Position numbers and translations under genes: made by a program
In this document: positions 1 through 45,923 of the stretch, in pieces
How the letters are laid out: each line of letters begins with the position of its first letter
Numbering within the stretch: position 1 is the stretch's first letter
The notes under the pieces: model-generated
Databases searched by the model: none
What the model saw: the letters and a program-made list of their open reading frames with translations, nothing else
What the model was told of the DNA's origin: nothing
Virus record (IMG/VR): IMGVR_UViG_3300025671_000082
Coordinates: 1-54,824 of that record
Direction: 5' to 3' (one strand)
DNA: 54,824 nt
From: a virus
Taxonomy: Duplodnaviria; Caudoviricetes

Positions 1-260
1 TTTCATAGTCCCAAAGTTTAGTACATCCTAAGCTTAAAGTCAGGTTCTATAGGATTTAGCCTGTAATGTATAATTAAAGATATATCTAAAGATATAGTTA
101 GTTTTTATGTAGTATAAAAAAAAAAAACAAAAAGAACAAACATAATAATACAAAAACAAAAGAAATAAGTTTTAAATTATACATCTTAAATTTATTCTTT
201 ATTACCCACCCCCCACAGGTACCCTCCCCAAAGATTCCTATCGGGAGTAGCCCCGTTCTA

Positions 261-278
261 TCATAAGGGTCAAGTATT
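261..278 (-). promoter_or_regulatory. Class A repeated motif (AATACTTGACCCTTATGA), candidate phage RNAP promoter
   Basis: Identical 18-mer at five intergenic sites, all in gene orientation; promoter function is inferred. Confidence 0.7.
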
Positions 279-344
279 TTTTTATTCTATAAAAACAAGG
301 TAGTTTTGGTACCTAGTTTTGGGGTAATTAGCCCCGCTTTTTGC

Positions 345-425
345 AAAAAAAAAATAAAGATACACCCCCACCACCCCCCGAGAAACCCCGTTAAGGGTCT
401 CCCAGAGAGCAGCAGAGGCGTATCT
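345..425 (-). terminator. Long GC-rich hairpin followed by U-tract, probable terminator of the replication/metabolism block
   Basis: Plus-strand arms agatacacc...ggcgtatct enclose an inner gagaaaccc/gggtctc stem; the A-run near 346-355 is a U-tail on the minus strand. Confidence 0.55.
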
Positions 426-431
426 AAGGTA

Positions 432-611
432 TTAAACCAAGAACCCTATTTGTCCAGCTACAGTACCTTCGTAGTAGCTATAATAGGTGTTCCAGTTTAA
501 GGTGTATTCTTGTGTGTTGTATTCAACGATCATTACATCGTTAATGTAGTCAGTATACAAACACTTGACGATAAGCTCACCGCCCCTTTTCATGTAAAAT
601 ACTTCAGACAT
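432..611 (-). CDS. Small hypothetical protein (59 aa, below the ORF-track cutoff)
   Basis: ATG at 611 abuts the upstream stop; open to TAA at 432. Confidence 0.5.
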   Translation of the reverse strand: MSEVFYMKRGGELIVKCLYTDYINDVMIVEYNTQEYTLNWNTYYSYYEGTVAGQIGFLV

Positions 612-1049
612 TTACTTCTTCCAATGTGAGAGACAAACAAGCTCTACTTCTTCAGGGTTAGGGAGTTTGATTACATCCTCCCAATACTCTTCTGCTACTA
701 CTACAACAGGGTAATAGCCTTCTTCAATAAACCCTACGTGGTGTACTTGTTCATACCGGTGTAGAGAGTAAGGAAGAGAGCCAATACTCCGAGTAAGGTT
801 AGCAGACTTCTGTTCAACTGGGTCTGTTACAACAAACTCTTTAGTCATGTCTTTCCAGAGGTAACGGATAAGTTCTTCTGTAAAGTCATCTACCCCATAG
901 ATAGCTACGATAGAAAGATCTTTGTAGTCTCGCTTGAACTGTTCTTTAGCTGTGTCTGGGCGAGGTTTCAACCGGATCTTCTTTGGTTTACTGTCAGTAG
1001 AACCCTTTGGACGCCCCGGTTTACGTTTAGTTTCGTTCTGTTCAGTCAT
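612..1049 (-). CDS. Hypothetical protein with basic AT-hook-like N-terminus (RKPGRPKG)
   Basis: ORF coupled to its neighbours; GRP motif seen. Confidence 0.6.
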   Translation of the reverse strand: MTEQNETKRKPGRPKGSTDSKPKKIRLKPRPDTAKEQFKRDYKDLSIVAIYGVDDFTEELIRYLWKDMTKEFVVTDPVEQKSANLTRSIGSLPYSLHRYEQVHHVGFIEEGYYPVVVVAEEYWEDVIKLPNPEEVELVCLSHWKK

Positions 1050-1272
1050 CCAGCTCTTCCTTCAGTCCTGTATAACCACCGGGGATAAGTTTAAGAACTT
1101 GAGGTACGGTTTTAACTTTCATGTCATCTACCAAAAAGTGTTTCCATACAGAGTCTAAGATACAATCCCCAGAGGTGATGTCTACATAAACATACTCTAG
1201 TTCTTTTGAGTCCAACAGTTCTTTTGCCTTATCACAATAAGGACAGTTCTGCCGACCAATAACGAGATACAT
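1042..1272 (-). CDS. Glutaredoxin
   Basis: CPYC active site, TVPQV and GGY motifs; near nrdJ. Confidence 0.9.
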   Translation of the reverse strand: MYLVIGRQNCPYCDKAKELLDSKELEYVYVDITSGDCILDSVWKHFLVDDMKVKTVPQVLKLIPGGYTGLKEELDD

Positions 1273-3831: not shown

Positions 3832-3903
3832 CTATGTCAAGTCAACAATCTCACAACTATCCCCAGAGCAGGTCATAGTCTGGATACCAGAAGTATTGTC
3901 CTC
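3832..3903 (-). repeat. Diverged duplicate of the nrdJ 3' end (EDNTSGIQTMTCSGDSCEIVDLT*)
   Basis: 64/72 identical to 4603-4674 by manual alignment. Confidence 0.9.
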
Positions 3904-3947
3904 AAGTTTAACCCAACACTCTTTTACTTTAGGGTGTGGAACTGTAT

Positions 3948-10263: not shown

Positions 10264-10281
10264 TCATAAGGGTCAAGTATT
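10264..10281 (-). promoter_or_regulatory. Class A motif upstream of the exonuclease/primase operon
   Basis: Exact 18-mer repeat, intergenic. Confidence 0.7.
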
Positions 10282-18005: not shown

Positions 18006-18023
18006 TCATAAGGGTCAAGTATT
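18006..18023 (-). promoter_or_regulatory. Class A motif upstream of SSB and DNA polymerase operon
   Basis: Exact 18-mer repeat; first copy downstream of the stand-alone RNAP gene. Confidence 0.7.
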
Positions 18024-21872: not shown

Positions 21873-21895
21873 ATTATAGAGGGGAATACTGCCCC
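21873..21895 (-). promoter_or_regulatory. Class B motif (TGGGG-N7/8-CCTCTATAAT), candidate early promoter upstream of the RNAP operon
   Basis: Four intergenic copies, all confined to the early region. Confidence 0.65.
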
Positions 21896-24708
21896 AGTTT
21901 TATGGAGTTTTAGTTTTTCTCCATTGGGTCGTGTGTAGGTAGATCAAAGTCGAGTGTATTAAACACTGCATCATCATCTTCAGGAATTAGCCCTAGATCA
22001 ACCGCACCTGATGTTACTGCTAGGAGCGGAGAGTGGTCCCCATAGATTGGATGCTCATAAAATACAAACCCGTATTCCCGGTGTATCTCTGTAGCATTCT
22101 GATCAATTAACCAACGACGATTATGAGAGGTTTTTACCCAGTGATCGAAGTCACAGTCTTTTCCATAAGGGTTCATTTTTCAGTCCCAGAGGTTTGTGAG
22201 GTTTTCAGCAACAAAGTACAAAGCTTCTTTTGCAAGTGCTACTTTGTGGTCTTCAAGTTTGTCTGATATAGTGTATTCAAGAAGGTTACTACCGTGAATA
22301 AGTAGTTCTTCCTGCCATACATGTACATTTGGGTATTCATACGGATAAGAGTTTATGTTCTTTGACCACTCTACCATACGCTCACCAAGCCATTGACAAA
22401 GAGATATGTCGAGATTAACGCAGTCTTTACCAAGTTCTGTTTTGTAGAAGTCCTTCATTATTCAATCCATCCTTTGTTTTTCAAGAGAGTGGGTTGTTCG
22501 CTTATAAGTTCACAAAACGATTCCCAAATTTTTCGTCGATTTCCTTCTGCTAAAGGTAGACCGTAAGGTGCCCCAATTATAGTCAACTTAACTTCTTGCC
22601 GAGGAAAACCGTGCTCTTCTGCGAGGTAGTCGTAGATGTTTTTTACAGGTTCATTCATCTTTGTATTTCTCCTCAATCTTCGCCATTTCCTCGTAGTAAG
22701 CAGTCTTGGCAGTTGCCACAGCCTCTTCATAAACAGGCCAATCAGACTTTATAGTCTCTTTATAAGCAGCCCAAGCAGATGCTTCGATCTCTTTGTAAGC
22801 AGCCAAGGCAGCATCAAGTTCTTCTTCCTTACTGATCATTTTTGTGTTTCCTCTTCCTGTAAAGCTTCTGCTTTGTTTTCTTAGAAGTCACCACCCTAGG
22901 TCTGAACTCAGGTGACTGCCAAAGTTCTTTCGCAAGGTGGTTTCTTGGTTTGATCTTTTTCGCCTTTCCCATGTTTAAACCTCGTAAGTAGGTGGTTAAG
23001 TTTAGCTCTGTATCAATCCACTACTTGTATAACTTCTGCGTTTTCCCACACGCTAAGTTCTTCCTTCAGTTCCTCAACACGGTATGAATAGGGTGGTCCT
23101 ATCTCCAATGCTCTCTCCAAGTAATGACTGCTATACCGTATTCTTTCACGTATTTTCTTCTCCGCCGCCTCTCTAGACCGGAAGATACTGTAGTGGCGAG
23201 GGTTCTCCACAAACGTATCAGAACGGACGTAGCCAAGACCCCCGGACATAATCACCCATACGCTAAGTTGTTCGATCATTGTTTAGCTCCTTCTTGATTA
23301 CTTTTACTGACCCAATCATATCTCCCAGATCGCCAAAGTCGCCTAGTTGCAGGTCGTCACCAAACAGCATCCTATTGAACCAATCGATGCTTTCCTCATC
23401 GTTACCGTGAATAAGATCAGCATCATAAGTCAGATCGATTACTAACCGGATTGTCTTGTCACTCATTTCCTACCTCTTAACTCCAAAGAAGGTGTTTTCT
23501 TCAATCTTCTGCATCAGTCGTCGTCCTTCGTGCCATCAAGGTAGAACCAGTAGTTGCGTTCCAGAAAAGTAGTGTGAAAGCGATAGTTAATTTCCTCTGG
23601 GTCTATATCCCCAAGAACTTCAAACGTCCAACCCTCGCCCAGAGAGAAGTGCCAATCACAGGAACCGTCTGAATAGGGGATGCGCTCACACTCCAGCTTG
23701 AGCAACCCCTCTAACGTAGTTGGTACAGTGACAGGTAGTTCGTTTATCCACATGTCCTCTAGCTTTTGTAGCTTTTCCAAGAAGAGGGGGAGGAGTTCTG
23801 CTTCATCAGCATAGCCAGCCAGCTTCTCCTCCAAGGTTTCTTCTTTCCCTTCTTCTTTAGCAGGGAACGTGAAGATATACACTTCCGTAAGTTCGTTGTT
23901 TGGTCCTTGAGGCCGCTTTGCGAATTGTACCTCCGAAACTCCTGCGTAAGACCCTTCAACCCCCATTCCGTAGGTGGCTTGCAATCCTGCAAAAAGGACT
24001 TCTTTGAGACGCTCTGGAGTAAAGGTGAGATAGAACGGTGGCAGAATTGAGTTGTTCTGTGTCATTTCTGTTAGTTTCCCGATACAAGAGTTATAGCAAC
24101 CATAGTCGCAGTTACAGCTAAAAGGAACAGGAGCCATTCAGCTTTGTTCATAGGTCGTTTAGTCCTTGATGTTCGTTTTTGTAAACCTCGTGGTCGAGTT
24201 CTTCGTAGGCTTTTTCGATTGCCAGCTTGAGTTGCAAAAGCTGATTACGACGTAACACCGTAGTACTATAATTATCGTATTCAGTAACACAAATCTGGAA
24301 AAAGGGTTCACCAGAGGATCGAAACACAGCGATTTTACAACCTTTAGTTTCTATTATTTCTTCGTGGAACACGGGTTCTTTCATTCCTTACTCCTTTGTT
24401 GTTTTAGTAACCACAGGCTTCTATGATTGACTTAGACGCTGAGTCCGCAGCAAAGACAGCCGTATTAGCTTCCTCTTCAGATAGGGTCAATCGGAACAAA
24501 CCTTTATCTGTGAACCACATTACAGCTTCTACTGTGATTGTGTAGTTGATTTGACTCGCCCAGACACGGTACAAGTTATGTTCACCGTCATCGTATAGCG
24601 CTGTGCCATCAGGGAAGCAGAAGATAACGTCAGAGGCGCTAGTAGCGTTGTGCGGTACTGCCGCGAAAAGGTAAGGGTTTTCGTAGCGTTCAGGTACTCG
24701 ATTAATGT

Positions 24709-24984
24709 TCATTTGTATCTCCATAAGTAGGTGTTTTGCCCGAGCAGGCCCCAGACCTTGCCCCAGATATTACCCCCGACATTGCCGTAGACATCGCCCT
24801 CGACATTACCCACGACATCGCCGTAGACATCGCCGCCGACATCACCCCAGACACTGCCATCGACACTACCTAAGACATCTCTGATGTGCAGATTGCCATC
24901 ATCATCCTCAATGAACGTGATTAGTTTTGCGAGTTGATCCAGTTGGGATTGGCTCAGGTTGGTTTCGAGTTTTTGTTCAGTCAT
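24709..24984 (-). CDS. G-[DSN]-V-x tetrapeptide repeat protein, paralog 1 (start reassigned to ATG 24984)
   Basis: 12-bp tandem repeats; N-terminus paralogous to 25028-25357; AAGGAG SD. Confidence 0.75.
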   Translation of the reverse strand: MTEQKLETNLSQSQLDQLAKLITFIEDDDGNLHIRDVLGSVDGSVWGDVGGDVYGDVVGNVEGDVYGNVGGNIWGKVWGLLGQNTYLWRYK

Positions 24985-25027
24985 TTTGTTTCTCCTTGAT
25001 TTCTTTCTTACATTCCTCAAGGTCGTC

Positions 25028-25357
25028 CTATTCGGACTCTTTGGCATTGCTTAAGACACTGCCCTCGACGCTGCCCCGGACACTGCCTAAGACACTGCCC
25101 CAGACACTGCCCCAGACACTGCCTTTGACATTGCCTCTGACATTGCCTCTGACATTGCCTCTGACATCGCCCACGACATCACCTAAGACACTGCCATCGA
25201 CACTGCCCTCGACATTGCCTCTGACATCGCCAAAGACATCACCTTGGACATCATCGATATACAGCTTGCCATCCTCGTCTTCGACAAAGGTGATGAGTTC
25301 CGCAATTTGATCCAGTTGGTCTTGCGTCATATTTGTTTTTAGTTTTTGTTCAGTCAT
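25028..25357 (-). CDS. G-[DSN]-V-x tetrapeptide repeat protein, paralog 2
   Basis: About 16 imperfect 12-bp tandem units. Confidence 0.75.
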   Translation of the reverse strand: MTEQKLKTNMTQDQLDQIAELITFVEDEDGKLYIDDVQGDVFGDVRGNVEGSVDGSVLGDVVGDVRGNVRGNVRGNVKGSVWGSVWGSVLGSVRGSVEGSVLSNAKESE

Positions 25358-26759
25358 TTTGGTTCCTTTCGTTTTTGTCTAAACCAGTGACTTACGTCGT
25401 CACAAGGATCGTCGGTTAGTCCCATTCTTCTACTTCACCCGCATAATACAACAACTCTTTCTCTAGTTGCTTATTACGCTTTATGCAATTTACATCTATT
25501 TTGTGGCCAAAGATTTCTAATTCAATTATTTCGATTTCTTTTGGCTCAAACCAACGAGGACTACCGGGAACCCCATAACTACAGAGTTCCAAGTAGCACT
25601 CGTAAGTTACAGTGAGGTCTTCAAAGTACTTACGACCAACTGCCATTACTCTTCTCCTTCTTTTACGTCCTCGTAGGTGTGACCCCACTTAGCATCTATT
25701 TCTTTTACTAGTTCCTTGAAAGAAACTTTCTTTAGGTATTCAGGGGATTTACGCTGTTTTGCTTTACTTTCGATTTTCATTTAACATCTCCATCTATACT
25801 CGCGAAGCTTGTTGTCATCTGGTTATTCCTCGTTGGGGTGGTTGTTTTAAATCGAGTAACACGCCACCAAGACGGCTGACCTTTATCGTTATGCACCAGT
25901 ACCATAGGAGCGCCAAAACAGCCTTTCGGCCACTCTGTACCGTTGTTAGGGTCAAACTCTAAAACAGTGTAGGTTTTCCCTATTGTTATATTTATGAAGA
26001 AGTCGCGGCTTGAAAATATCAACTTGTCCCCTTGTTTCATTCCTTGTCTCCTTTGTATTTTTTAAACTTTGAAACCGTTGAGCGGATATCATCGAAAAAA
26101 CCGTCAGAGGCTTTTACAAACTCAGAGAAAGGTTTGGCAGGGTTTGTATACACAGTGTACTTTTCACCAACCTTGTACCAGCTTGTTCCGGCGTGGACGC
26201 AAGTCACTTTCTTAGATGTTTCGGTGTAGTTGTTCATTTGGTTTCCAACCCATGCTCATCTTTGTCTTCTTTTAGCTTACCAAGCATCATTTCTGATACC
26301 GCAAGTTCGAAGTCCAAGACTTGTTCATATAGCTCTGGGTTATGTACTTCTAACGCAATCAAGACAGAAGAAAGAGTTCCTCTCAACTGTCCAACTTCTT
26401 TACAGTAGTCCCCTTCGGCGATTTCTTTGATACCTTCAAGAAGTTCGTTTCGTTTGATCTGAGTCATGCGTTTTCCTTTCTTTTATTTGGCTTTTTCTTT
26501 GAATTTGTTTTTGACAAGAAGCCAATAACATCATAAGAGAAAAACCCAATTATAGTCAATACGTGCATTTCATGAAGTGGCGATTGAAAGAACAGTGAGT
26601 AAAACATCGCTAGAGTTCCAAGAATAGGAAACTGTTTAACGAACCATTCTTTCTTGGTTACTGCATAAAACACAACAGTTAAAAACAGCCGGTAGCTAAC
26701 ACCAATTAGAAACAAATCCATTGGATTTTCCTTTTATGATGGGAGAAAGCCCGTACAAA

Positions 26760-27053
26760 TCAAGCGAAATGTACGGTAGCTTCCTCAACAAAGCAGGATG
26801 CTCTGTTTTCAAAGTATTCACGGGGAAGTACCCATTCAGCAAACGTGCCGTGGATAGCGTCTCCTTCACATACACCACGGTATGCGTTAAAGTGAGGGGG
26901 TAATTCGTCCATCACAATCTCTATGACAGCGCCTTTAGAGTATTTGGCGGCGTTGTCGTAAGAGTCAGTCCAGTGAGAGAAGTCACGGGTCTGAATGTCG
27001 TTTGCCAGCTCGTTTGCTTCACGAGGGCAGGTGCCACGGAAAAACTTGTACAT
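26760..27053 (-). CDS. Hypothetical protein with possible ADP-ribosyltransferase-like motif order
   Basis: FFRG...SHWTDS...A..Y...EWV. Confidence 0.4.
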   Translation of the reverse strand: MYKFFRGTCPREANELANDIQTRDFSHWTDSYDNAAKYSKGAVIEIVMDELPPHFNAYRGVCEGDAIHGTFAEWVLPREYFENRASCFVEEATVHFA

Positions 27054-28336
27054 GGTAGTCTCCTTTCTTTGCGTTATATTTCTACTGTGCGGATAAAACC
27101 GCTGCCGTTATCGGCTATACACTCGATAGCGTCTTCGTACGCTCTGTATGTATCGACGACGTAGACTTCACCGTCTTCCTCGTCGTGATCAAATACGAGG
27201 TAAAATTTAACGGCCTTTACTTCTTCCATATTAGGCATGGTAGTACTCTCGCTTAGTATAGTTGAGGTTCAGTGTGAGCAGTTTTACACCATGCTCAGGG
27301 TGTGAGTATTAGATGCAGCCTTTTTCGACTAACACCTCATACTCGTTGGGTCTTTTAACCTGTAACCCTACAGGCCATAACGATGGATGCATCGTGCCAA
27401 GGTGGTACTCACTACCACTCTTAGTACGAACTTTACGATCGTTATGAACAGCTACGATGCGAGTGGTTATCCACTCTACACCATTGAGTTTCCCTCTCAG
27501 GACAACTCCCCCACCGCTGAGTGGAGAGAATTTATAGTCTTCGATGACTCGCATGACAGCTTCCTTTCGCATGACAGCTTCCTTTCTTATTCGACTAGTT
27601 TTCTTGCGAGGAACTTAGCGTAGTCTCGCATTGCTTCTTCAGCGACTTCGATGGGTACGCAAGCGGCTATACCGTGTCCATCACAATATCCCAGCAAAAA
27701 ACCCTCAAGAAAAGGGTGATCTCCTGTATAGATTTCTACCTGTCCTTCACCGCAACAGTGTTCCTTACTGTTCTGGATAGAGACCTTTACACCTAAACCT
27801 ACAGGGTATGCGTGAAGGAGAGATAGGCTCCCGTTGGATTGATAGGGTGGTGTTTTGAGGTGTTCTTTAACTGTCAGCATTTGCTTTTGTTCCCATTCTG
27901 TGCAGAAAAAAAAAGTAGAAAGGTTAAGAGGGGCCAGCCAAAGCCAGCCCCTTTTGTTAGTCCTCCGCAGGGCCGAAGAGATCGGCTGCATATGCTGCCG
28001 CCTCCTGCCAAGCCTCATCCGACTCCTCCCCGAAAAAAGGATCGCATAAACGCTCACCGACCTCAAGAGCAAACTCCCGCTCGTGTGCGCACGGGACCGC
28101 TTCGAGCAGAGCCAGCCACAGGACTTCCTTGTCGTGCCGAGCATCCCAAGCCCCTGCGCGGGCCATGGCAAGCTCATGCTTCAGAGATAGCACCTCTTCC
28201 TCGGTGTAGGTAGAGTTGACAACCTCCAGCGCTTCGGAACGCCAAGTGGAACCTGTGAGGCAGTTCCAAACCTTTGCAAAGATTGACATGATGTCCTCCT
28301 TTTCTCTGCGTTAATACGTTCTAATTTGATTCTATC

Positions 28337-28359
28337 ATTATAGAGGGTAGAAAAACCCC
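28337..28359 (-). promoter_or_regulatory. Class B motif
   Basis: GGGGTTTTTCTACCCTCTATAAT upstream of ORF 27957-28289. Confidence 0.65.
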
Positions 28360-28433
28360 AGTTTTTATTGTACAAAGCCCGTACAATAATTTTTCCGAGA
28401 GGCCACTGGTATAGCAGCCCCTCGGATTTTATT

Positions 28434-28820
28434 TTAGTCCATGAATACGCCGACCGCACAGCCGCCGTAATACCCAACAGTCGCCAGCATGGGTCCAGTT
28501 ATTACAGTAGACCACCCAACTGAGCTTGCAGTGGCCCCCGTAATAAATGGCGCAGACAGCGCACCAGACCAGCCGACAGTAGAACCTGCGGCAACGCCGG
28601 GGCCTACGATCGGAGAAGCGGCAACTACGCCAATACCGATCAAAATTGATCCGGCGATACCGGCACCAATACCAATTGCGGCGTCTGTATTAGAGCATTC
28701 CGCAGTCTGTTCGAGACTATTTGTCTCCAAGTAATACTGGTTATTTTCCAGTCGATTGTCTGCGATTGCAGGTGTTGCCATTGCGATTACCAGTGCGGTA
28801 GCTGCGATTGAGGCTTTCAT
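28434..28820 (-). CDS. Exported glycine-zipper-like membrane protein (start reassigned to ATG 28820)
   Basis: AAGGAG SD, signal peptide, GxxxG-rich hydrophobic segments. Confidence 0.65.
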   Translation of the reverse strand: MKASIAATALVIAMATPAIADNRLENNQYYLETNSLEQTAECSNTDAAIGIGAGIAGSILIGIGVVAASPIVGPGVAAGSTVGWSGALSAPFITGATASSVGWSTVITGPMLATVGYYGGCAVGVFMD

Positions 28821-28845
28821 GAAGATTCTCCTTCTTGGTTTCTTC

Positions 28846-28868
28846 ATTATAGAGGGCCAAATTTCCCC
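28846..28868 (-). promoter_or_regulatory. Class B motif
   Basis: GGGGAAATTTGGCCCTCTATAAT. Confidence 0.65.
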
Positions 28869-28955
28869 ACTTTTTTTGGTCAAATTTATCAATTTTTAGT
28901 ATAAAATACTCCCAAATTTGGTAAAAAAGCCACCTCAAATAGAGATGGCTGTAGT

Positions 28956-29264
28956 TTATTTTTTACGCTTCCACGTAGATCTGTTTTTATTATTTTTTGA
29001 TCGATTAGAGGGTTTCAAATTGGATGGACGATTATCAGACCGTTTCTTGTTTTTATGGTCTATTTCTCGTTTACCCATAGGTTTTCCGGTAGACATTTCT
29101 TTAATTATACGGTGGACATACACCGCTTTTCCGTCAATACGAACAGTTTTGTAACCATCACCGTGGTTAGTTCCTGCCTCAGATCCAGCGGCTTTTCGGC
29201 CACGAGATTCTTTCCAGAAAAGTTTGCCTCCTTTTCGAGTAAACAATTTATTCCATTTTTGCAT
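28956..29264 (-). CDS. Free-standing HNH endonuclease (start reassigned to ATG 29264)
   Basis: HRII...IDHKN...DNRPSNL...N motif. Confidence 0.8.
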   Translation of the reverse strand: MQKWNKLFTRKGGKLFWKESRGRKAAGSEAGTNHGDGYKTVRIDGKAVYVHRIIKEMSTGKPMGKREIDHKNKKRSDNRPSNLKPSNRSKNNKNRSTWKRKK

Positions 29265-29289
29265 TATGGAATCCTTTCGTACTTTCTTC

Positions 29290-29311
29290 ATTATAGAGGC
29301 CAAATTTCCCC
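29290..29311 (-). promoter_or_regulatory. Class B motif, first element of the early region
   Basis: GGGGAAATTTGGCCTCTATAAT, near-identical to 28846-28868. Confidence 0.65.
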
Positions 29312-29338
29312 AATTTTTATGTATTATACGGGCTTTGT

Positions 29339-36545: not shown

Positions 36546-37646
36546 TTAAGCGTGGAAGATCGGCAGGATGCCCAAGTTCAGTGCGTCCATTTTACGAGCA
36601 TACGAAGCGGCAGCACCAAAGGCAGCGTCTGTAGCGAAGGCAGTAGTTGCGCCAGCCCAGTCGTAACCCATCGGGTGCATCGCATAACCCCAGCGATACC
36701 AAACGTTGGTTGAGCCACCACCAGCGTAGGAAGCAGCGTTACGGTCAACTTCAACCGGCGTCGGAACAGGCATAGCTGCGGAAGCAACGGAACCCGGCTT
36801 GATGATGAAGGTCGTCTTGGTGGACTGAGCGTTAACTTCAGCTTCAGCCGACAGGTTGCCTTGGTTAGCACGAGTCATAATCAGACGGAACTTACCACCG
36901 AAGATGGTCGTGAATTCGATGTTGCCTTCAGTGACGGTTGTTTCGTCAACGAGGTTGGCAGCACGCATTTCAGCCATAACTTCAGGCGAAGTCACCATGT
37001 ACATGAAGTCCGGTTCATAGTCCTTGAAAGCTGCTCCGATGGAACGGAACAGGCGCTCACCACGAGCAGCACCAATAGCGGAGCTATCGAACAGTTTACG
37101 AGCATCGCCAGCGCCAGTAGCGGCTGCGCCGTGCAGGCCAGCAGCGTTAACGTCAACGAATGCGCCAACACCTGCTGTATCTGCGTTGGTGTCGAAGTCG
37201 ATCATACCGGAAGTCGTGCCGAGGCTAACTTCGTGAGCAGCAACACCTTTGAGAACTGCCAGCAGAGCGTCATGTTCGTCCTGTGCGCGAACTTCAGCGA
37301 AGTCACGGGCGATCTTTGCCAGACCGTCCTGCTTGGAGACAACTTCCTGCATGTTAACTTGTTCTGCACCGAAAGTACGAACAGTCTTAACAAAGTCAGC
37401 AACGTCTGTGCTGATGCCGGTGTAGGTTCCGTCTGTAGCGGACGACAGCGAAGCAACGTTCACAGTGGCCGACAGAGGCTTGTACCAGCGGAACTGACCG
37501 ATGAAGGATTCTCCCGACAGGTCAATGCGCTGATCAGCAGCAACAATACCTGTGCCGTTCAGCTTCTTAGCTGTGGTGTAGGCTTCGTCCGAGTAAGCGG
37601 AGATGGCCAGAGCAATGTTCTGGAAATCAGTGTTAGAAATAGGCAT
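36546..37646 (-). CDS. Major capsid protein
   Basis: 366 aa after the scaffold; strong codon bias; VEVDR...GGG...HPMGY C-terminus. Confidence 0.85.
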   Translation of the reverse strand: MPISNTDFQNIALAISAYSDEAYTTAKKLNGTGIVAADQRIDLSGESFIGQFRWYKPLSATVNVASLSSATDGTYTGISTDVADFVKTVRTFGAEQVNMQEVVSKQDGLAKIARDFAEVRAQDEHDALLAVLKGVAAHEVSLGTTSGMIDFDTNADTAGVGAFVDVNAAGLHGAAATGAGDARKLFDSSAIGAARGERLFRSIGAAFKDYEPDFMYMVTSPEVMAEMRAANLVDETTVTEGNIEFTTIFGGKFRLIMTRANQGNLSAEAEVNAQSTKTTFIIKPGSVASAAMPVPTPVEVDRNAASYAGGGSTNVWYRWGYAMHPMGYDWAGATTAFATDAAFGAAASYARKMDALNLGILPIFHA

Positions 37647-37673: not shown

Positions 37674-38363
37674 TTATAGGTTAAAGTTACCTAGTTTACC
37701 TTTCGCGGCAAGAGCTAGAATTTCTTGAGTTGTTAGTTCACCAATAGGTTTGGTGACATCAGTGGAAGGCGCTCCAGCCGGATTGCCTGTTCCTGCACCA
37801 GTGTTAGACTTAACACGGAACAGGAATGAGTTGTCTTCGGATTTAGCATAAGCTTCTACATAATCACGAATATTTGAACCTGTAGAGTGAACCCATTGAC
37901 CTTCTTCGTTTTGAACCAGTTGTTCAACAATTTCACGACGAGCCATGTCGCGTGATTTATCGTTGCGGAAATCCATACCAGCGAGTGCATCATTCAATAC
38001 ACTGTCTCGCTTAAGCTGCGTGGTTTCTTTTGCGTAAACTTCTAGTTTAGCTTTAGCTTCGGCAAGTTCCAGTTCAAGAGCTTCTTGAATTTTACCTTCT
38101 TCTTTCATACGGGCAATGGCTTCTTCTTTTTGTTTTGATTCCATTTCCGCTTTAAGCTTCAGGGCTTCATCCCGCTCTTTAGACATGCGGTCCATGTTTG
38201 CTTTCATCTTAGCCAGTCGTTCTTGAACGATAGCTTCAATGTCGTTTTCAGGGGTTTCTGGAGTTTCCTGAACTTCAGGAGTTTCTACAGTTTCTTCTAC
38301 AACAGTTTCTTCTGTTGTGTTTACTTCGTTCTGATTATCTTCAGTCATGTTATTTCCTTTCAA
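37674..38363 (-). CDS. Capsid scaffolding protein
   Basis: Acidic coiled-coil with G-rich tail directly before capsid; start may be ATG 38348. Confidence 0.75.
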   Translation of the reverse strand: MKGNNMTEDNQNEVNTTEETVVEETVETPEVQETPETPENDIEAIVQERLAKMKANMDRMSKERDEALKLKAEMESKQKEEAIARMKEEGKIQEALELELAEAKAKLEVYAKETTQLKRDSVLNDALAGMDFRNDKSRDMARREIVEQLVQNEEGQWVHSTGSNIRDYVEAYAKSEDNSFLFRVKSNTGAGTGNPAGAPSTDVTKPIGELTTQEILALAAKGKLGNFNL

Positions 38364-38438: not shown

Positions 38439-41400
38439 TTATGGCCCAATTCCATAGAAATCAAATCCCGGTTTTATCGGTTCAATGATTTCTTGATAAG
38501 TAAGTGCGTCAGGTCCAGACTGTAGCAGCCCATCTCGTTTAGCACGTTCTAAGTATTTTCGGTAAGTCTTTCTAGACAAACCCTGACGTCTCATTTCTTT
38601 GAGAGTTTTGTCAATAGTGCCTGACTTCAGTGCATCTGCATACAACTGGCGTAAAGCAAATTTCGCAGGAACTGCGTCACCTAAGTTTGTAAAGAACGCG
38701 TCGTGGATAGTACCCGTATCGATATTGTTCTCTCTTCCCCAAAGGTGAAATCTTCGGACAAGCACAGCGTCATTACTGTGGTTACCGTTAACACCAAGAC
38801 CAATAGCAGCGTCCTGTATTGATTGCTCAGACAGAAGTTTACCGTCTTTTGCAGGTGCTTCATATATATTGAACACTTTCTGCCCAGTGACAGGATCAGT
38901 GAAATCAATCCTTACTTGTTCCTTTGTACGATAGCGTTGCATCATTGTTTTACCATCGAAAGTTACCCAAGGAATATCTGTTGTCTGTGCTTCACGAGCA
39001 AAATCTTTTGCAATGTCTTTCCAGAACTTGATAAACTTACCAGTAACAGGAACCTCTGTTTCAAGATGACCAGACATAATTGATGAAATCTTATCGAATA
39101 GCCGAGTACCTACAAGGTCTCCGGTTTCATCTCTAAGCTTAAACAAAAATGTATGCATCTCTTCAGAGTTTTTAATTCCATCTCTGAACTCACCTTTAGC
39201 GGTTTCATACAGAGACTCTGTGATAGGTTTGCCTGACTTAGAGGCTAGTACCACATCTTTCTTAATGTCGCGTAATTCGTCAATACGTGTCCAATTTTTT
39301 CTGTCCATTTCAAAGCTAATCTTAGCATCAATAGCCTTCTTAAACTTTTCAACTTCTTTAGATGAGATAGAGACTTTACCTTTTTTAGCAAGCACCTTTG
39401 CAAAAGCGTCCGCAATATTTTTAGCTTTGGTAGCCGATCCGGCCCCATAGAATGTTACCCAAATTATTCAGCAAGGTAGTCACTCCTTGCCCGTGTAAAA
39501 GGCTCTACCGGAAGAAAACCAACGTTTAATTGTTCTATGAGAAACGTTATGAGCCTTAGCAGCATTGCGTAAAGAATGATATGTTTTGCCATCTACCGAT
39601 ACTTTTTTTGCGCGATGATGAGATTTGGACATTCTTTTCGACTGTGCCTTTTTAGCTTCTTCGGACCAAACGCCCTTAGCAGGTTGTTTACCTTTTGATC
39701 CAATTCTACGGTAGTAAGAACGTACCGCTTCTGTTTGTTTTCTCATTTGGTCTTCTGTGTTTTTCCGTCCTGACAAATGTTCTTTTGAAAATTTAGAATA
39801 TTCTTCTCTCAACCTTTTGAATTGAGTCGAACCTATTAGCTTATCTTTACCACAGTTCATAAATCTGAACGCATAGGTCATTTCAAAGTTATTATGTATT
39901 TTCCAAAGCAAAAAGTGAGCAAGGTAATGTTCTCTTGCTGTCAGGTAAGTGATGTTATCACTCTCATCAGAGCCGCCCATAGATTTAGGAATAATGTGAT
40001 GACCTTCTGTGTAAATATCAGAGGGTTTCACATTACGTCCGTATTTTCGTATGAGTTCATCGTAATGGTATTGGTAGTTCATTTATTTTCCTTTTTTTTC
40101 ACTGCTATATGTTTCCATATAGTTTAGACTATATCATCACTTGACTTGTTTCAGCTTACCCATAAATACTGCCCAAGCAGGATTAGAGTAATACCTCTTC
40201 CATTGTGTTAAAGTTTTAACAATGAATGGCCTTTCAGCCCATAGTACAAGTGCTCTGCGCTTCCATCTGACATTTAGATGTACTCCCTTCGGATAGTCGT
40301 TGAACGTTCCCCTTGTGGGGCTTCGCTGCTGATTGCCTACGTCATTACACGTTTAGGTTTTCCAGCAATTCACAGAGTTTAAAGAACACAGATTTAAGTT
40401 TATGTTCTGGTTTTTAGCAGCTTTCATTAAGTCAGACCAATCAAGGTCTAATTCAGCAAGTTCAGGTATTGCCAAGAACTCAGGGTCGTTGACAGTGCGT
40501 TTAGCAATTTCGTCGTACAGACGCTGTTTCTTATCGGTTTGAACAACGTTAGAGAGGTTAGCAGCCGCTCTATCTTTTGTGGAAAGAGCAATAATCTGCG
40601 CACCAGAAGAACTAGCGTCGTTTTCAATCATCATCTTGGTCTTGTACTTAGCAAGCTTTCTGATATCTGCTGAATTAAACTGCCGTTTATCTGTTGGCAT
40701 CTTACCATCCATGTGACGGTATATACGAGTGTATTCTAGAGCCAAACGAGATACTTTGCCGATGTGTTCATCATCAAGACCCATTTGATGGGTTTTCTCA
40801 ATGAACTTACGAACCTGACCTGCTCTTTGGGAAGGCTTGTCTAGCATATAGCTACCAAGCTCTAGTAAGTCATCTTCTACAGCTTTAAATGCTTTTAACC
40901 TACCTTGCACTGTAAGAACATCTAGTGGGTTCCCGACAGCGGCACCTATTTGAGTCATAAGCTCTTCTACTGCGTCTGGTGTCATAGAAACACCTTTTGC
41001 CGTATTTAAGAACGGACGCACGGTTTCACCCTTAGTTGGAGTTAAAAGACCACGGTGATAAACACGACCTCGGAAGTCAATAGAGGCGTCTACCGAGAAG
41101 GCTTGATTACGCTGTCTATGGAATTTAGCTGTTGCAAGAACACCTCTTCCATCATTACCACGAGCATCGATAAACAGTTTCTTCCACTCGTTCTTTTCAA
41201 GCAACGCAGCATCACCTGATCGTTTAGCTTTAAAGTAGATTACTTCTTCGGCAAAGTCAAAGAAATCAGGGTCTACTTGGTACTTCACTGAGTTAGCGTG
41301 ATTAAGCATTTTAGCTATATCACGATCAATCTGCTTTGGATCATAGTCAGCAAAGACGTTTTCAGATACGACAGGTTGAGAGGTTTTACGATTACGAGCA

Positions 41401-43952
41401 TCAAAGTAAACTTTTTCTCCCGCCTTAGCGTAAAGCTGATCACGTCTATGGTATACCCCAAACCGCCTTGCAGCACGAGTCTTAGCATTAGCAATTTGTA
41501 GTTGTCTTAAATCACCATCAACAATTTGAATTTGTTTAAACACAGAAACACCGCGTAAAGACTTATCGCGAGAAGCTAAACCTGTAGCCAAGTCAATAGG
41601 AGAGCTTGTGCCACTATCACGAAAAACATCAGTACGGATTATCCCTTGGCGCTCAAGATTTGCAAGTATTCTGGACCCATCCTTATGAAACTCTTTTAGT
41701 GTTTTAGATCTAAAAGGATTTAAACTACCAAGCTCATCATCAAACAGCTGACCAATCTTAATAGCAAGCTGATCGTAGTCTGCACCGTCTGCAGCGGCAA
41801 TCATTTCCATAGACTTAGACAAGGCTTTAATGGTTTTGTCGTTTATGGTTTTAATAGCCTTTTCTCGGTAAAAATTAGTAACCCTTTCTCGGTAAAAATT
41901 AAATAAAAAATCTAGAGCAATCGCGTCAAAATCTGCGATGCTGGGTACGTCAGAAGCAGAAAGTTTTTCTGAAAGTGTTTCTATAATAGATTCAAGGGTT
42001 GTTTCATCCAAAAACTCACCGTCTAAAATTTTACGGGTATTACCTCGGAGTTTAGAAATTTGTTGAGTGATCCAAGAGTCGCTTGGAAGTTTTTCTTTGT
42101 TTAGCTTTTTCCATAGTTTATAACCGGGAAGTTTTTCAAGAAGAAACTTCTTAGCATTAAACTTCGGATAACGCCTAATGATAGGCTGTGTGTAAGCAGC
42201 GATAGGGGCCTTGCGATTGTAGAAGGCTCTACGAGCTAAGTTAGCACCTTGTTTTTCAGGCCAACGAGCAATGTAGCGGTTATCTTTGATTTGAGAGTCA
42301 ACTAACTTAGAGATTGTAAACTTTTTACCGAGAATGTCAACCTCTGGATCGTCTTTTAAACGACTGTTAAGCGTACCAAACATCCTACCTCGCTCAACAG
42401 CGCGGTTAAACAGTGTAGTACCTTGGTCCTGAACAGCATTCAAAGTAAACTTACGGAATACAGAAACAGGGGTCCCCCAGACTTCTCCGGTTTTGTTAGC
42501 CCGAGAAAAAGTTTGACGAAGAACATCAACAACAACTGATCGTTGGTTTACAGAAAGAGACCTGTCTAAACTATTTACAAAATCTCGTATATAGTCTTGT
42601 TGTTTAGTTGTTAGAGCATACTGTTCAAAAGAAAGCTTCTCAAGCCTCTCCGCTAGAAACTCTGGATCAGGAGGTTGTAAATGCTTGTAAGGCCCATCCC
42701 CATAGTCTGTCCCATCGGCGCTAAAGGCAGCACCCTTGCGATCGTTTTTGAAATAGCGCCTTGAACCTTGTTTTTGAGACAAAGAGTTTCCCTTGTAATC
42801 GACAAGGGACAAAGCTTGTGCGTTTTCACCAGCATCATTTTTAAAGAAATCCTTTAGTGCTTCGGTATTAGCCTTAGAACTCATAAGTTCATCTGGGGTG
42901 TTAAACCTAAGCGTACCTGTGTATTCATTGGTTGTAGTAGGGCGTCTAACTGTTCTATTAGCACGACGCATTAGTCCTCGAATACTCAAAGCCTTACCTT
43001 CAGGAGAAACAAACTCTTCAGCCTTCAGTCGTCCTTTTTGAAACAACGAGGCTTGACGCTCACCACCTAGTAGTTTAGTTTGAACTTCAGTTGTTTGACG
43101 CCTTAGCCATTCTCCATAGGTCTTAATCTTTGAAGGTTGACCATCCAGGTCTGCGGAATGAACTTTGTTTAGTTTCCTTGGTTTAATTTTATCTGAGGTC
43201 ACGCCTTCCAGAGCTTCTTTAGACTTTACTACCGGAACAAGAGTTGATCGACAGTTAAAGTGAAGCGGCGGTTGGAAACGGTTATCATCAACATCATAAA
43301 CCTTACCATTGTGATGAGTACAGATAGGGCTGGTACGGCTATCAAGAATAGCAGTAAACATGTAGCCTTCAAACAATTCTTTGTTTTGTTGTACAACATC
43401 ATTCAAAGCTTGAGTTTGAGCCGCTGTAATAGAAGTTCTTGTTAGTGTCTTGGCTTGATGCTCTGTAATCTTAGTTGTTTTCAGAACATCATTAATAATT
43501 TCGTTGTTAGCTTTCCCCGCAGCAAGTCCAGCTTTAACTTTAGATTGTATGCGGACTAGTTCTCCAGAAGAGATATTGCTAACGTTTCTAGTAATAGATT
43601 TAGCACCCTTAATGTTTGGGCCAGTAATCTCTTTCACAAGATCAGCAGTCTTAGGTTTTTGTGTACGATAAAACCCTTTCACTTCCGCGTGAAGGTTATT
43701 ATAGTGAAAACTCTTATTTGCCTTTGTAAATTGAGTAACAGAGCCTACAATAGACTTGTTAATTTCTTTAGCAAAACGGTTAACTTCAGGTTTCACATCG
43801 CTCCGAATGTTCTTCTTTAAAACTTCTGCTAAGTTTTTACGATGTGTTCTTAGTATTTCACGTTGTGCTTTTTGTTGACCATTCTCGTAGAGTCGAACAT
43901 CAGTGCTGTGATCTACGATCCTGTCAAAAATCTTTTCGTTAATTGTAGACAT
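38439..43952 (-). CDS. MuF (SPP1 gp7-like) domain fused to single-subunit RNA polymerase; exons 40402-43952 and 38439-39459; 1523 aa spliced; candidate virion RNAP
   Basis: MuF motifs LDSRTSPIC and PPLHFNCRS; RNAP motifs DFRGRVY, motif A DASSSGAQ, motif B KAAKNQNMVTFYG (restored by splicing), NGNHSNDA, motif C IHDAF. Confidence 0.9.
39460..40401 (-). mobile_element. Group I self-splicing intron, 942 nt
   Basis: 5' exon GAACAU pairs with IGS GUGUUC (U.G at the splice site); P AAUUGCUGGAAA, Q AAUCAGCAG, R GUUCAACGACUA, S GAUGAUAUAGUCUA; P9 GAAA hairpin; terminal G; removal restores frame and motif B. Confidence 0.93.
39480..40082 (-). CDS. Intron-encoded HNH homing endonuclease with NUMOD-like C-terminus
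   Basis: HHIIPKSMGG..DN...LTAREH..AH motif; located after P9. Confidence 0.9.
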   Translation of the reverse strand: MNYQYHYDELIRKYGRNVKPSDIYTEGHHIIPKSMGGSDESDNITYLTAREHYLAHFLLWKIHNNFEMTYAFRFMNCGKDKLIGSTQFKRLREEYSKFSKEHLSGRKNTEDQMRKQTEAVRSYYRRIGSKGKQPAKGVWSEEAKKAQSKRMSKSHHRAKKVSVDGKTYHSLRNAAKAHNVSHRTIKRWFSSGRAFYTGKE

Positions 43953-44012: not shown

Positions 44013-44087
44013 TGGTGCTGAAACTCAGATTTGAACTGAGAACCTACGCTTTACAAGAGCGTTGCTCTGCCGTTGAGCTATTTCAGC
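44013..44087 (-). tRNA. tRNA-Thr(UGU) with encoded CCA
   Basis: Acceptor GCTGAAA/TTTCAGC, D-arm GCTC/GAGC, anticodon stem ACGCT/AGCGT with loop CTTGTAA, T-arm CTCAG-TTCAAAT-CTGAG. Confidence 0.93.
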
Positions 44088-45659
44088 TTATTCTTCCTCT
44101 AATTGAATCTCTTCATCCGGTGTTTTATTTGTTAACGGATCAGTTTGAATCTCTTCAACCGCTTCTTCGTCGTTGTAATCAGCCGGAAGGAAGTCATTGT
44201 ACTTGGCAATATTAATCCAAGTGCTACGAGAGATAATACCACTCTGATACCATTCACTGACAAGGCGCATTGCACCTTCACCGCCAACAATAGGAGAGAA
44301 GTCAGAGGATAGTTGGAAGTTAATGTCATTACCTGTATATTCGGTGCCATACTTCCAATTCAGCATGAAGGCAATAACTTCTTGCATTGTGCTTGAGATT
44401 TTAGCGTTCATGGTCCCAAGTTGAGCAGTTTGAGAAGCATTACGGATTTCAAGAGCAACACCAGAAGCTGCTTGTTCGGGAGAGAGCATACGAATTCCCA
44501 TCTTTGCCATTTCAGAAACAGTAGCTTCAATAGCTCGATCCATGTCACTCAAAGCACTTGTAGGTGTTTCAAGGACAGTAATAGACTCATCTTTACGGAC
44601 ACGTAGCCAAGTACCAAGACCTGCATTCACGAGTTCTTCAAACTCTTCGTCAGTCATGTCAGACTGCACCACAGGGGTATAGGTCGCAGCACCGTATAAC
44701 AGGTGGTTACGGCGAGATACTTTGTTGTACAGAGCTACCTCTCTGTCAATCAGAGGCATAAGTACTGGTTCAATTGGCTCTAGTTGTCCGTTAAGCGGAA
44801 ACGCCGGGATACGATCCAAACGCTGACCAAACTTCATAGGATAAACAGTGTCGTATTTTTGGAAACCACCATCAGCAGAATCTATGTATTCTTGAGTGAT
44901 TACACCATTCAAAGCTTCTACTTCGTGAGAACCATGAGCTTTCTTATAGTAATCAAGTACCAAAAAACCCTGCTCATCAAGATAGTGATCACAAACAGTA
45001 TCAACATAGTCTGGATGCCAAGGGTTGTTTGAATCATACTCTTCCATAATGTAACGAGTAACCATACGGGTAAGAGTCTTAGCGCGAGTAATCGGATGAG
45101 TCTTTACTTGAACATTAATAACGTTTTCAGCCTTAATCAAAACAGGGTAAGGTGAAATTTTCATACGCTCTTCCGGCATCATTGATTCTAGTTCAGCATC
45201 AGGCACAACAGGGTGATCAATGTAAACCCAAGCACGAGAAGTTTGAAGTTCTTCCCAGATAGCAGCATCTAAGAAATTAAACAAGGATGCACCATCAAGG
45301 GTAAAGTCTTTTGTGATCCAATCATAAGCTTGTACTTGCTCAAGCTCTTCAGGTAACTTAAGTTGTGAAGGCTTACGAAGCAAAGCACTAATTAGCACAC
45401 GAGCATACTGTGTTGTAAGCCCCGGTAGCTCTGCTTCTGACTTGTAGAAGTCATACTGGTTTTGAGTCATGCTAGGTGAAAAAGGCAGTAGCAAGTTATT
45501 GTAATCAACCTCTATGAATTCATCATGTGCTTTAGCATGAGCTTCACCTTGAAGCACAGCACGGGCTTTTTTCCACAAAGGCTTAAGAGACATATAAGAA
45601 GCACTAGGTGTTTCTGGTCCTCTTTTAATAGTATTAGCAGCTGTCTTAACGAGCGCCAT
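44088..45659 (-). CDS. Portal protein (DUF4055-like)
   Basis: 523 aa directly upstream of the MuF gene; overall motif pattern and synteny. Confidence 0.8.
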   Translation of the reverse strand: MALVKTAANTIKRGPETPSASYMSLKPLWKKARAVLQGEAHAKAHDEFIEVDYNNLLLPFSPSMTQNQYDFYKSEAELPGLTTQYARVLISALLRKPSQLKLPEELEQVQAYDWITKDFTLDGASLFNFLDAAIWEELQTSRAWVYIDHPVVPDAELESMMPEERMKISPYPVLIKAENVINVQVKTHPITRAKTLTRMVTRYIMEEYDSNNPWHPDYVDTVCDHYLDEQGFLVLDYYKKAHGSHEVEALNGVITQEYIDSADGGFQKYDTVYPMKFGQRLDRIPAFPLNGQLEPIEPVLMPLIDREVALYNKVSRRNHLLYGAATYTPVVQSDMTDEEFEELVNAGLGTWLRVRKDESITVLETPTSALSDMDRAIEATVSEMAKMGIRMLSPEQAASGVALEIRNASQTAQLGTMNAKISSTMQEVIAFMLNWKYGTEYTGNDINFQLSSDFSPIVGGEGAMRLVSEWYQSGIISRSTWINIAKYNDFLPADYNDEEAVEEIQTDPLTNKTPDEEIQLEEE

Positions 45660-45793: not shown

Positions 45794-45811
45794 TCATAAG
45801 GGTCAAGTATT
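45794..45811 (-). promoter_or_regulatory. Class A motif upstream of the portal/head operon
   Basis: Exact 18-mer repeat. Confidence 0.7.
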
Positions 45812-45822
45812 TTTTACTCTTT

Positions 45823-45867
45823 AAAAACAAAGGAGACCTACCGGGTAATTCCCAGCAGGTCGTCCTT
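45823..45867 (-). terminator. Terminator-like hairpin between tandem class A motifs
   Basis: AAGGA-C-GACCUGCUGGG/CCCGGUAGGUC-UCCUU followed by UGUUUUU. Confidence 0.7.
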
Positions 45868-45905: not shown

Positions 45906-45923
45906 TCATAAGGGTCAAGTATT
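45906..45923 (-). promoter_or_regulatory. Class A motif immediately after the endolysin stop
   Basis: Exact 18-mer repeat. Confidence 0.7.

Follow-up and report, generated by a model that had tools for sequence, protein, structure and literature searches.

A MuF head-protein domain fused to a T7-like RNA polymerase and split by a group I intron in a siphovirus-type genome: a candidate virion-delivered enzyme

The stretch of DNA analysed here (the window) comprises the 54,824 nucleotides of the IMG/VR virus record IMGVR_UViG_3300025671_000082 (Duplodnaviria; Caudoviricetes), which is linear, of freshwater origin and about 80% complete. On its minus strand it contains one gene composed of two exons (43952..40402 and 39459..38439), whose product of 1523 residues combines an N-terminal head-morphogenesis domain of the MuF/SPP1 gp7 type with a single-subunit RNA polymerase (RNAP) of the T7 family. 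We regard this architecture, including the splice, as practically certain. The function of the fusion protein is a matter of interpretation and is weighed after the gene, its domains and its surroundings have been described.

A spliced gene and its intron

At this locus the list of open reading frames (ORFs) contains three entries on the minus strand (43952..40353 with 1199 residues, 40082..39480 with 200 residues, and 39395..38439 with 318 residues). The preliminary description of the window, made from the letters alone, had proposed that the ORF track splits a single gene, and that the spliced product has 1523 residues, and both proposals proved correct. The exons are separated by a group I intron, to which the Rfam family RF00028 (gathering score 50 bits) matches at 40459..40105 with 103.1 bits (E 1.3e-26). 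The splice sites were predicted by reading the DNA, from the P1 pairing and from the intron-terminal G. The exon word AGAACAU, which ends at 40402, pairs with the guide GUGUUCU a few bases into the intron, with a U-G pair at the 5' splice site, and the 3' end of the intron reads AAUUUG with its terminal G at 39460. The intron enters motif B of the polymerase after the second base of a methionine codon, and the join of 40402 to 39459 creates this AUG codon, restores the T7 spacing of motif B (K-x3-M-x3-Y-G) and yields a frame of 1523 residues whose sole stop is the terminal one. Judged by its Rfam class, the guide pairing and the terminal G, the intron would be self-splicing.

In RNA, excision of the intron takes place precisely at 40402/39459. 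The skip of 942 nucleotides from 39459 to 40402 is present in the assembled contigs of all three freshwater metatranscriptome runs compared, with depths of the spliced join of 11, 38.1, and 25.9 against depths of the unspliced path of 14.8, 34.1, and 31, and the join is absent from the DNA contigs of the one DNA run compared. In the cultured phage DSS3_VP1, a tblastn-type match to exon 1 ends at 24634 and the match to exon 2 begins at 24638, inside one coding sequence, and metagenomic homologs with up to 83% identity are uninterrupted proteins of about 1480 residues. The preliminary description had pointed to intron-free homologs of the same architecture as a check on the gene, and these exist in DSS3_VP1, in DSS3_PM1 and among the metagenomic proteins. 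Because the intron-free homologs are contiguous across the site and the RNA contigs carry the predicted join, the locus is best described as one spliced gene. Exon 2 contributes the second half of motif B, fingers and palm, motif C, and the C-terminus.

The ORF within the intron matches PHROG 655 "homing endonuclease" (E 2.9e-39). Its Pfam HNH match of 20.6 bits is slightly below the cut-off of 21.4, and there are weak matches to NUMOD1 and to the I-TevI DNA-binding domain. At 39504-40051 a contig of one DNA run (X3, depth 5.1) has 474 other letters in place of 546 nucleotides of this ORF, which suggests a population variant of the intron ORF. A related group I intron (91.8 bits) with an HNH ORF interrupts the same motif B in the related record L031 (13419-14290), where it sits three nucleotides downstream of the insertion site in the window and has a guide sequence that matches the exon end of L031 itself. 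Among the 120 homologs listed in the protein search described below, 11 end at 1129-1199 residues and contain the MuF part only, which fits an interruption near motif B and is confirmed in L031. In EBPR siphovirus 1 (JF412302.1, 7040-12413; L002 in our set) the gene is split as well, into gp47 "head protein", gp48 HNH endonuclease, and gp49 "hypothetical", and no group I intron was found at this split at the Rfam gathering score.

Domains of the fusion protein

The N-terminal part is matched by Pfam PF04233 (Phage_Mu_F) at residues 135-238 with 65.3 bits (cut-off 29.6, E 1e-17) and by PHROG 241 "head morphogenesis" at residues 1-377 (E 2e-57), in agreement with the preliminary description, in which MuF motifs had been seen in about the first 330 residues. 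In a tblastn search the majority of 1079 phage records match residues ~1-340 alone. A complex prediction of the portal protein with the MuF domain scored 0.00 in both runs (mark 0.32) and counts neither for nor against an association. The long middle region following the MuF domain had at first been left unassigned as a whole. Most of it has turned out to be the N-terminal domain of the polymerase, given the alignment to T7 RNAP residues 41-883, and about 200 residues (roughly 335-545) do remain unassigned. This helical domain, folded alone, reached a predicted local distance difference test score (pLDDT) of 74.7. In a fold search against 48,161 chains the best Z was 4.8 and none reached Z 5, and many of the top rows were sigma-factor region 2 (Z 4-4.8), which is the noise level for helical bundles. 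Pfam searches up to E 10 with 26 members gave nothing consistent, no sigma family, and no E below 0.007. An identity as sigma-factor region 2 is not supported, the fold matches (Z <=4.8) not being significant and a Pfam sigma match being absent.

For the C-terminal part, the two pieces alone match Pfam PF00940 (RNA_pol) with 17.2 and 18.1 bits, which is below the cut-off of 22 bits (the exon 1 match lies at residues 1097-1152), and both pieces together in frame reach 36.6 bits. All five intron-free homologs compared exceed the cut-off with 26.8-35.8 bits. PHROG 414 "RNA polymerase" matches exon 1 with E 6.5e-13 and exon 2 with E 4e-9, and PHROG 2166 "N4-like RNA polymerase" matches the fused polymerase with merely E 1.7e-4. 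Against the PDB sequences, a family profile built from 31 homologs has T7 RNAP as its sole match (E 9e-6, three collinear segments). Exon 2 aligns to T7 RNAP residues 723-840 with E 0.039, and phmmer with exon 1 gave no matches to the PDB sequences up to E 1. All the T7-family catalytic motifs that the preliminary description had named (DFRGR, A, B, NxxHSxDA, and C) could be located, and their core residues are invariant in an alignment of 31 full-length homologs with 31-81% identity to its first member (Table 1). The DFRGR motif is placed at what we take to be T7 residues 421-425. Also conserved is the T7-like tyrosine of motif B, which in T7 RNAP selects ribonucleoside triphosphates.

A structure was predicted, with 24 relatives, for an intron-free IMG/VR homolog that is 78% identical to exon 1, beginning at about residue 335 and continuing to its C-terminus (pLDDT 75, predicted template modelling score 0.67). 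Foldseek places only single-subunit RNAPs among the top matches of this model (human mitochondrial and T7, E ~3e-16). Against T7 RNAP it scores Z 27.3 with a root mean square deviation of 9.2 over 630 residues (model 212..1149 on T7 41..883), against another T7 RNAP chain Z 27.0 with a deviation of 3.8 over 517 aligned residues, and against yeast mitochondrial RNAP Z 27.1. The corresponding values are 17.9-18.7 for the N4 mini virion RNAP, 15.8 for N4 RNAP II, and 12.9 for Bst DNA polymerase I. In the model the fused enzyme is therefore nearer to the T7 and mitochondrial RNAPs than to the N4 virion RNAP. Profile searches and structure prediction had been proposed as a further check on the fusion, and by the matches to both MuF and RNA_pol and by this homolog model the C-terminal part is shown to be a complete T7-like RNAP with N-terminal domain, thumb, palm, and fingers, in which all catalytic residues are conserved and which is predicted to be active.

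Table 1. Features of the fusion gene, its neighbours and the promoter-like motifs in the window
Feature	Position	Strand	Basis
Exon 1 of the MuF-RNAP gene (codons 1-1183 and two bases of codon 1184)	40402..43952	-	
Group I intron, 942 nt, G-terminated at 39460	39460..40401	-	Rfam RF00028, RNA joins
HNH homing endonuclease ORF, 200 residues, in the 3' part of the intron after P9	39480..40082	-	PHROG 655
Exon 2 (last base of codon 1184 to stop)	38439..39459	-	T7 alignment, DSS3_VP1 match
MuF / SPP1 gp7-like head-morphogenesis domain (residues ~1-335)	42948..43952	-	Pfam PF04233, PHROG 241
Helical domain between MuF and polymerase (residues ~336-545, ~200 residues)	42318..42947	-	Separate fold prediction
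T7-like single-subunit RNAP (residues ~546-1523; span includes the intron)	38442..42317	-	Homolog model, profiles
DFRGR motif	41064..41078	-	D-x-R-G-R invariant in 31 homologs; aligned to T7 417-491
Motif A ENDASSSG, catalytic Asp	40602..40625	-	E, D, A, S, S invariant in 31 homologs; T7 527-579
Motif B K-x3-M-x3-Y-G, split by the intron	39438..40424	-	K, K, Y, G invariant in 31 homologs
NHSNDA (38783..38766) and motif C IHDAF (38708..38694), second catalytic Asp	38694..38783	-	Aligned to T7 VHSQDG, IHDSF; H, D, H, D invariant
Portal protein, upstream neighbour	44088..45659	-	PHROG 145, E 1.2e-51
tRNA-Thr (TGT), between the portal and MuF-RNAP genes	44013..44087	-	Rfam tRNA 44087..44016; ARAGORN
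Head scaffolding protein, downstream neighbour	37674..38363	-	PHROG 206, E 2.4e-11
Major head protein	36546..37646	-	PHROG 247, E 2.3e-24
Second, canonical unfused T7-like RNAP, 743 residues	18213..20444	-	PF00940 268.3 bits, E 1.6e-79; PHROG 414, E 1.2e-133
Class II motif copies	261-277, 10264-10280, 18006-18022, 45794-45810, 45906-45922	-	Exact matches
Class I motif copies	21896..21873, 28360..28337, 28869..28846, 29313..29290	-	All in the small-ORF block (21873..29313)

Gene order, promoter-like motifs and relatives

Along the minus strand the genes for tail fibre, holin, endolysin, portal, tRNA-Thr, MuF-RNAP, scaffold, and major head protein are followed by those for the head-tail adaptor, tail terminator, major tail protein, and tape measure. 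Behind these come about 25 small ORFs, then the second RNAP and the genes for replication and nucleotide metabolism, which encode a family A DNA polymerase, a primase-helicase, a 5'-3' exonuclease, a ribonucleotide reductase, ThyX, and a protein of the dCMP-deaminase family. The order portal, fusion, scaffold, capsid given in the preliminary description is borne out by the PHROG matches, with the tRNA-Thr gene as an additional element between portal and fusion. The ORFs scanned, which are part of the 83 ORFs of the window, did not include a sheath protein, and the tail module is therefore of the siphovirus type, as had been assumed. The second RNAP shares 47% identity with the protein annotated as RNA polymerase in DSS3_VP1. 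Four of the five larger related virus records encode a canonical RNAP (E 1e-74 to 1e-87) together with the fused one, and in the fifth, which is 58% complete, the fused RNAP alone was seen. The idea that the fused RNAP is a recent duplicate of the phage's own RNAP was rejected (hhalign E 0.089, 22% identity, though collinear).

Two classes of promoter-like motifs were found on the gene strand. The class II motif ATACTTGACCCTTATGA has five exact copies in the window against 0.20 expected. Two of them closely precede the portal gene and have a strong terminator-like hairpin (45861..45835) between them, one lies directly after the second RNAP gene, one ahead of the 5'-3' exonuclease gene, and one near the end of the record. 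The pair upstream of the portal gene is also present in two relatives (L007 and L008), and the motif is a candidate promoter for one phage RNAP. The class I motif TGGGG-N9-CCTCTATAAT has four matches with at most one mismatch against 0.00 expected. All are found between the tape-measure and second RNAP genes, each shortly before a ribosome-binding site and start codon, and the motif is kept at the syntenic place in four relatives (L006, L024, L027, and L031). The copy at 21.9 kb is the nearest class I motif upstream of the second RNAP gene, and the class I copy next after the tape-measure gene has as its first downstream gene one for a free-standing HNH endonuclease (28956-29303, minus strand, PHROG 99, E 4.9e-28). 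The distribution of the motifs fits a scheme in which the early genes, the second RNAP gene among them, would be served by class I, and the genes for replication and structure, MuF-RNAP among them, by class II.

The fusion is not restricted to the window. A word-indexed protein search gave 258 proteins at E <=1e-3 among 8,000 scored candidates, and among the 120 matches listed 87 carry both PF00940 and PF04233 in their precomputed annotation, the homologs listed being mostly 1450-1600 residues long. When 1.84 billion representatives were searched exhaustively, 7,538 matches were obtained, mostly to MuF only, of which 72 were at E <=1e-30, and a scan of IMG/VR yielded at least 581 confirmed stretches (of 596 candidates). 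In the phage collection no near-identical DNA was found beyond one chance-like match of 45 nucleotides. The databases name the homologs "SPP1 gp7 family putative phage head morphogenesis protein" or "minor capsid protein". In the literature searched, the main text of openly accessible papers, we found no description of a MuF-RNAP fusion or of a virion RNAP in these phages. The terms "RNA polymerase", "RNAP", and "MuF" do not occur in the searched text of the Naomviridae paper (PMC8323127), and "polymerase" does not occur in the main text of the MuF toxin paper (PMC5576092). Iyer et al. 2017 limits N4-like virion RNAPs to N4-like (pro)phages (PMC5512222). The fusion is abundant in databases, yet we found no description of it in print.

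DSS3_VP1 and DSS3_PM1 (Naomviridae, Noahvirus) are the only isolated phages in which we found the full-length fusion. The proteins, gp108 of DSS3_VP1 (YP_010105321.1) and its homolog in DSS3_PM1, have the orthologous architecture but are encoded by single uninterrupted coding sequences without an intron, and are annotated as "head morphogenesis" or "minor head protein-like". Compared with the window, the DSS3_VP1 protein shows 39.6% identity in the exon 1 part and 48% in the exon 2 part. Its gene is found in the order portal, tRNA, fusion, a hypothetical protein at the place of the scaffold, major head protein, and then tape measure, and the same second RNAP is present. Both phages have deoxyuridine (dU)-substituted DNA (PMC8323127). 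Their route to dU comprises a deaminase of the same family as that in the window and an HD phosphatase. The window, in contrast, encodes the dCMP-deaminase-family protein (10290-10694, minus strand) together with ThyX (2978-3748, minus strand), and no YfbR-type HD phosphatase was seen among the ORFs scanned. dU-DNA as in DSS3_VP1 is therefore not supported for the window phage, and the gene content suggests ordinary thymidine DNA.

A candidate virion-delivered polymerase and its alternatives

To our knowledge, single-subunit RNAPs carried in the virion are known only from N4-like podophages, all other cases being multisubunit or two-barrel enzymes that are unrelated. PMC5576092 and PMC5512222 describe SPP1 gp7 as a capsid protein that is bound to the portal in one or two copies, and they treat MuF fusions as cargo or effectors that are packaged and ejected. 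In N4, early transcription begins with the virion RNAP, which the phage injects (PMC5512222). By analogy, MuF-RNAP would be made late, together with the head proteins, and its MuF domain would bring the fusion, in a few copies, into the procapsid at the portal. At infection the fusion would exit with the DNA through the long tail and would transcribe the first genes without the host enzyme. These genes would include that of the second, canonical T7-like RNAP, which would then read the five strictly conserved class II promoters before the replication and structural genes. Delivery is favoured, indirectly, by the location of the gene between portal and scaffold, behind class II motifs. An RNAP that is made with the head proteins, when a second RNAP is already present, should mainly be of use to the next infection. 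The great distance between the two polymerases (hhalign E as above) and the presence of two motif classes are likewise indirect points in favour of delivery. The functional interpretation is strengthened by the site in the head operon behind two class II motifs, by the second RNAP, and by the recurrence of the RNAP pair in relatives. Thus, virion delivery and early transcription by the fused RNAP are probable in our view, with considerable reserve. What is new would be the combination of two known kinds, the virion RNAP and the MuF cargo fusion, with delivery as the part that we infer.

Several points weigh against this interpretation. We infer packaging in the virion and ejection from the MuF fusion and the position in the late operon alone. 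The first-entering end of the genome and a pre-early region may be outside the record, given its completeness. The structure model is that of a homolog and not of the spliced protein of the window itself. The RNA data are assembled contigs, which demonstrate that the spliced form exists and say nothing on its amount or timing, and with a low probability the join could derive from an intron-less DNA variant that is too rare for DNA assembly. The four class I sites lack consistent hairpins of the kind of the N4 early promoters. Folded as single-stranded DNA they do not surpass shuffled sequences (z -0.55, -2.29, -0.14, and -0.49) and give weak and mutually different structures, and N4-like hairpin promoters were accordingly rejected for them. 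Finally, the class I motif ends in a perfect TATAAT with an A-tract upstream, and the host sigma-70 RNAP could read the class I early genes, in which case the fused enzyme would be left without an assigned promoter.

The last point leads to the strongest alternative, in which the fusion is delivered but the host sigma-70 RNAP reads the class I promoters as in T7, and the fused enzyme has some other job linked to entry. Such a job could be the pull-in of the genome by transcription from the entering end, the transcription of a short pre-early segment, or primer synthesis. The alternative agrees with the perfect -10 hexamer and the A-tract, and about 20% of the genome is outside the record. In addition, no third motif class that could be assigned to the fused enzyme was found. 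However, the hexamers 16-17 nucleotides upstream of TATAAT are AAAACT, AAAAGT, or AAAATT and match TTGACA at no more than two of six positions, and there is no TG extension. The flanks CCTC and TGGGG are invariant even in relatives with 62-78% protein identity, which is typical of phage-RNAP promoters, and generic sigma-70-like sites around the MuF-RNAP gene are at chance level (17 against 16.8 expected). The invariant flanks and the missing -35 match favour a phage RNAP over the host enzyme at the class I sites, as far as the motifs themselves can tell, and we consider this alternative unlikely.

Delivery itself is denied by a second alternative, according to which the fusion, or a polymerase cut from MuF, acts as a late-phase RNAP in the producing cell and the MuF part merely couples the synthesis or location of the RNAP to head assembly. 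In its favour, the low-confidence stretch right after MuF (model residues 52-94, pLDDT < 50) might be a cleavage or linker region. Yet it is hard to see why the producing cell would need it, as a canonical RNAP with its own strictly conserved promoters before the late genes is already present. In addition, the fusion is maintained as a single reading frame in hundreds of relatives, the known MuF fusions are read as packaged cargo (PMC5512222, in the part covered), and no prohead protease was seen among the part of the ORFs scanned. This alternative is therefore rather improbable. A catalytically dead polymerase part that serves as a structural or DNA-binding head module, as the strong divergence (Pfam 27-36 bits, about 13-17% identity to T7 RNAP in the structural alignment of the homolog model) might imply, is hardly credible, given that both catalytic Asp, the Lys, Tyr, and Gly of motif B, D-x-R-G-R, and the His of NHSND are invariant in 31 homologs down to 31% identity, and that motif B harbours a homing intron, as such elements typically target conserved, essential sequence.

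Compared with known systems, the proposed virion-delivered RNAP resembles that of N4 most in its logic, though with another polymerase lineage and another packaging module. In both cases a single-subunit RNAP of the T7 superfamily is encoded among late virion genes and paired with a second phage RNAP for the next stage (in N4, RNAP II), and the injected enzyme of N4, which serves host-free early transcription, would have its counterpart in the fusion of the window. However, the N4 virion RNAP has about 3,500 residues, is always fused to a zincin-like peptidase domain, and occurs in N4-like podophages only (PMC5512222, in the part covered), whereas the fusion in the window has less than half that length, carries MuF and belongs to a siphovirus-type genome. 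The homolog model scores Z 18.7 with the N4 mini virion RNAP compared to Z 27 with the T7 and mitochondrial RNAPs, and the class I sites differ from the N4 promoters as described. In the window protein Pfam gives MuF and RNA_pol only and no significant match in the linker, although no dedicated profile for a zincin-like domain was used. With the MuF toxin and effector fusions (Iyer et al. 2017; Jamet et al. 2017) the protein shares the N-terminal MuF domain, the place after the portal gene, and the enzymatic C-terminal cargo. The cargoes described there, in the parts covered, are toxins and host-modifying enzymes such as ADP-ribosyltransferase, RelA/SpoT, RNases, 2H, PRTase, and Nudix (PMC5576092, PMC5512222), in contrast to a template-dependent polymerase of about 1,000 residues in a lytic-type genome. 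Over the length of the enzyme, its N-terminal domain included, the structures that match best are T7 RNAP (Autographiviridae) and mitochondrial RNAP, and all catalytic motifs are shared with them. T7 RNAP differs in being a free early product that is made after entry, without fusion to a head protein and outside the head module. In crAss-like phages, AR9/PBS2, and phiKZ-like jumbo phages a packaged polymerase also gives host-independent early transcription, but these enzymes are of the two-barrel or multisubunit type, whose fold is unrelated to that of the single-subunit enzyme. AR9 and PBS2 have dU-DNA, like the Naomviridae relatives of the window phage.

A further-reaching idea is that virion-delivered transcription arose a second time, separately from N4, in a widespread lineage of aquatic siphoviruses to which the freshwater window phage, the marine Naomviridae isolates, and hundreds of IMG/VR contigs belong. 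In this lineage an RNAP of the T7/mitochondrial type, attached to the portal-associated MuF protein, would pass with the DNA through the long non-contractile tail, start at the class I promoters and switch on the second phage RNAP, and the whole programme would do without the host RNAP. We offer this generalisation tentatively, as it is somewhat more likely to fail than to hold. If true, it would be a second, independent solution in which long-tailed phages combine the MuF cargo module with an enzyme of the T7/mitochondrial type, and MuF would be able to take along about 130 kDa of cargo whose target is the DNA of the phage instead of the host. Members with dU-DNA would in addition be freed from a host enzyme having to read uracil-containing promoters, in parallel to AR9 and PBS2. 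As an extension of this idea, the helical domain, given its non-significant matches to sigma-factor region 2, might help to read the TATAAT-like element of the class I promoters, a conjecture to which we give very little credit. Freshwater and marine viromes contain the family in abundance, and its cultured members infect the model bacterium Ruegeria pomeroyi DSS-3, so that the idea is testable. A compact and possibly promoter-specific RNAP of a new lineage would be of practical interest. For annotation, "head morphogenesis" and "minor capsid protein" in public records hide an RNAP, and the window gene, divided among three ORFs, is corrected here.

Three repeats elsewhere in the window may be added. 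Within the small-ORF block, at 24732-25263, there are two arrays of 12-nucleotide tandem repeats of the type GACAyyGCCnnn (18 copies in total), with about 240 nucleotides between the arrays. They overlap in part with a plus-strand ORF (24927-25310) in a genome that otherwise uses the minus strand, and could be iterons or an origin, or else encode a repeat protein. A direct repeat of 76 nucleotides (88% identity, 3833-3908 and 4604-4679), one copy of which is the 3' end of the ribonucleotide reductase gene, flanks an ORF of 214 residues (3948-4592) without a Pfam match, and the pair looks like the footprint of an inserted mobile ORF. The tail-fibre-like gene (47228-51397, 1389 residues) contains about 32 copies of a periodic repeat of 30 nucleotides, or 10 residues, at 47697-48995 on the minus strand.

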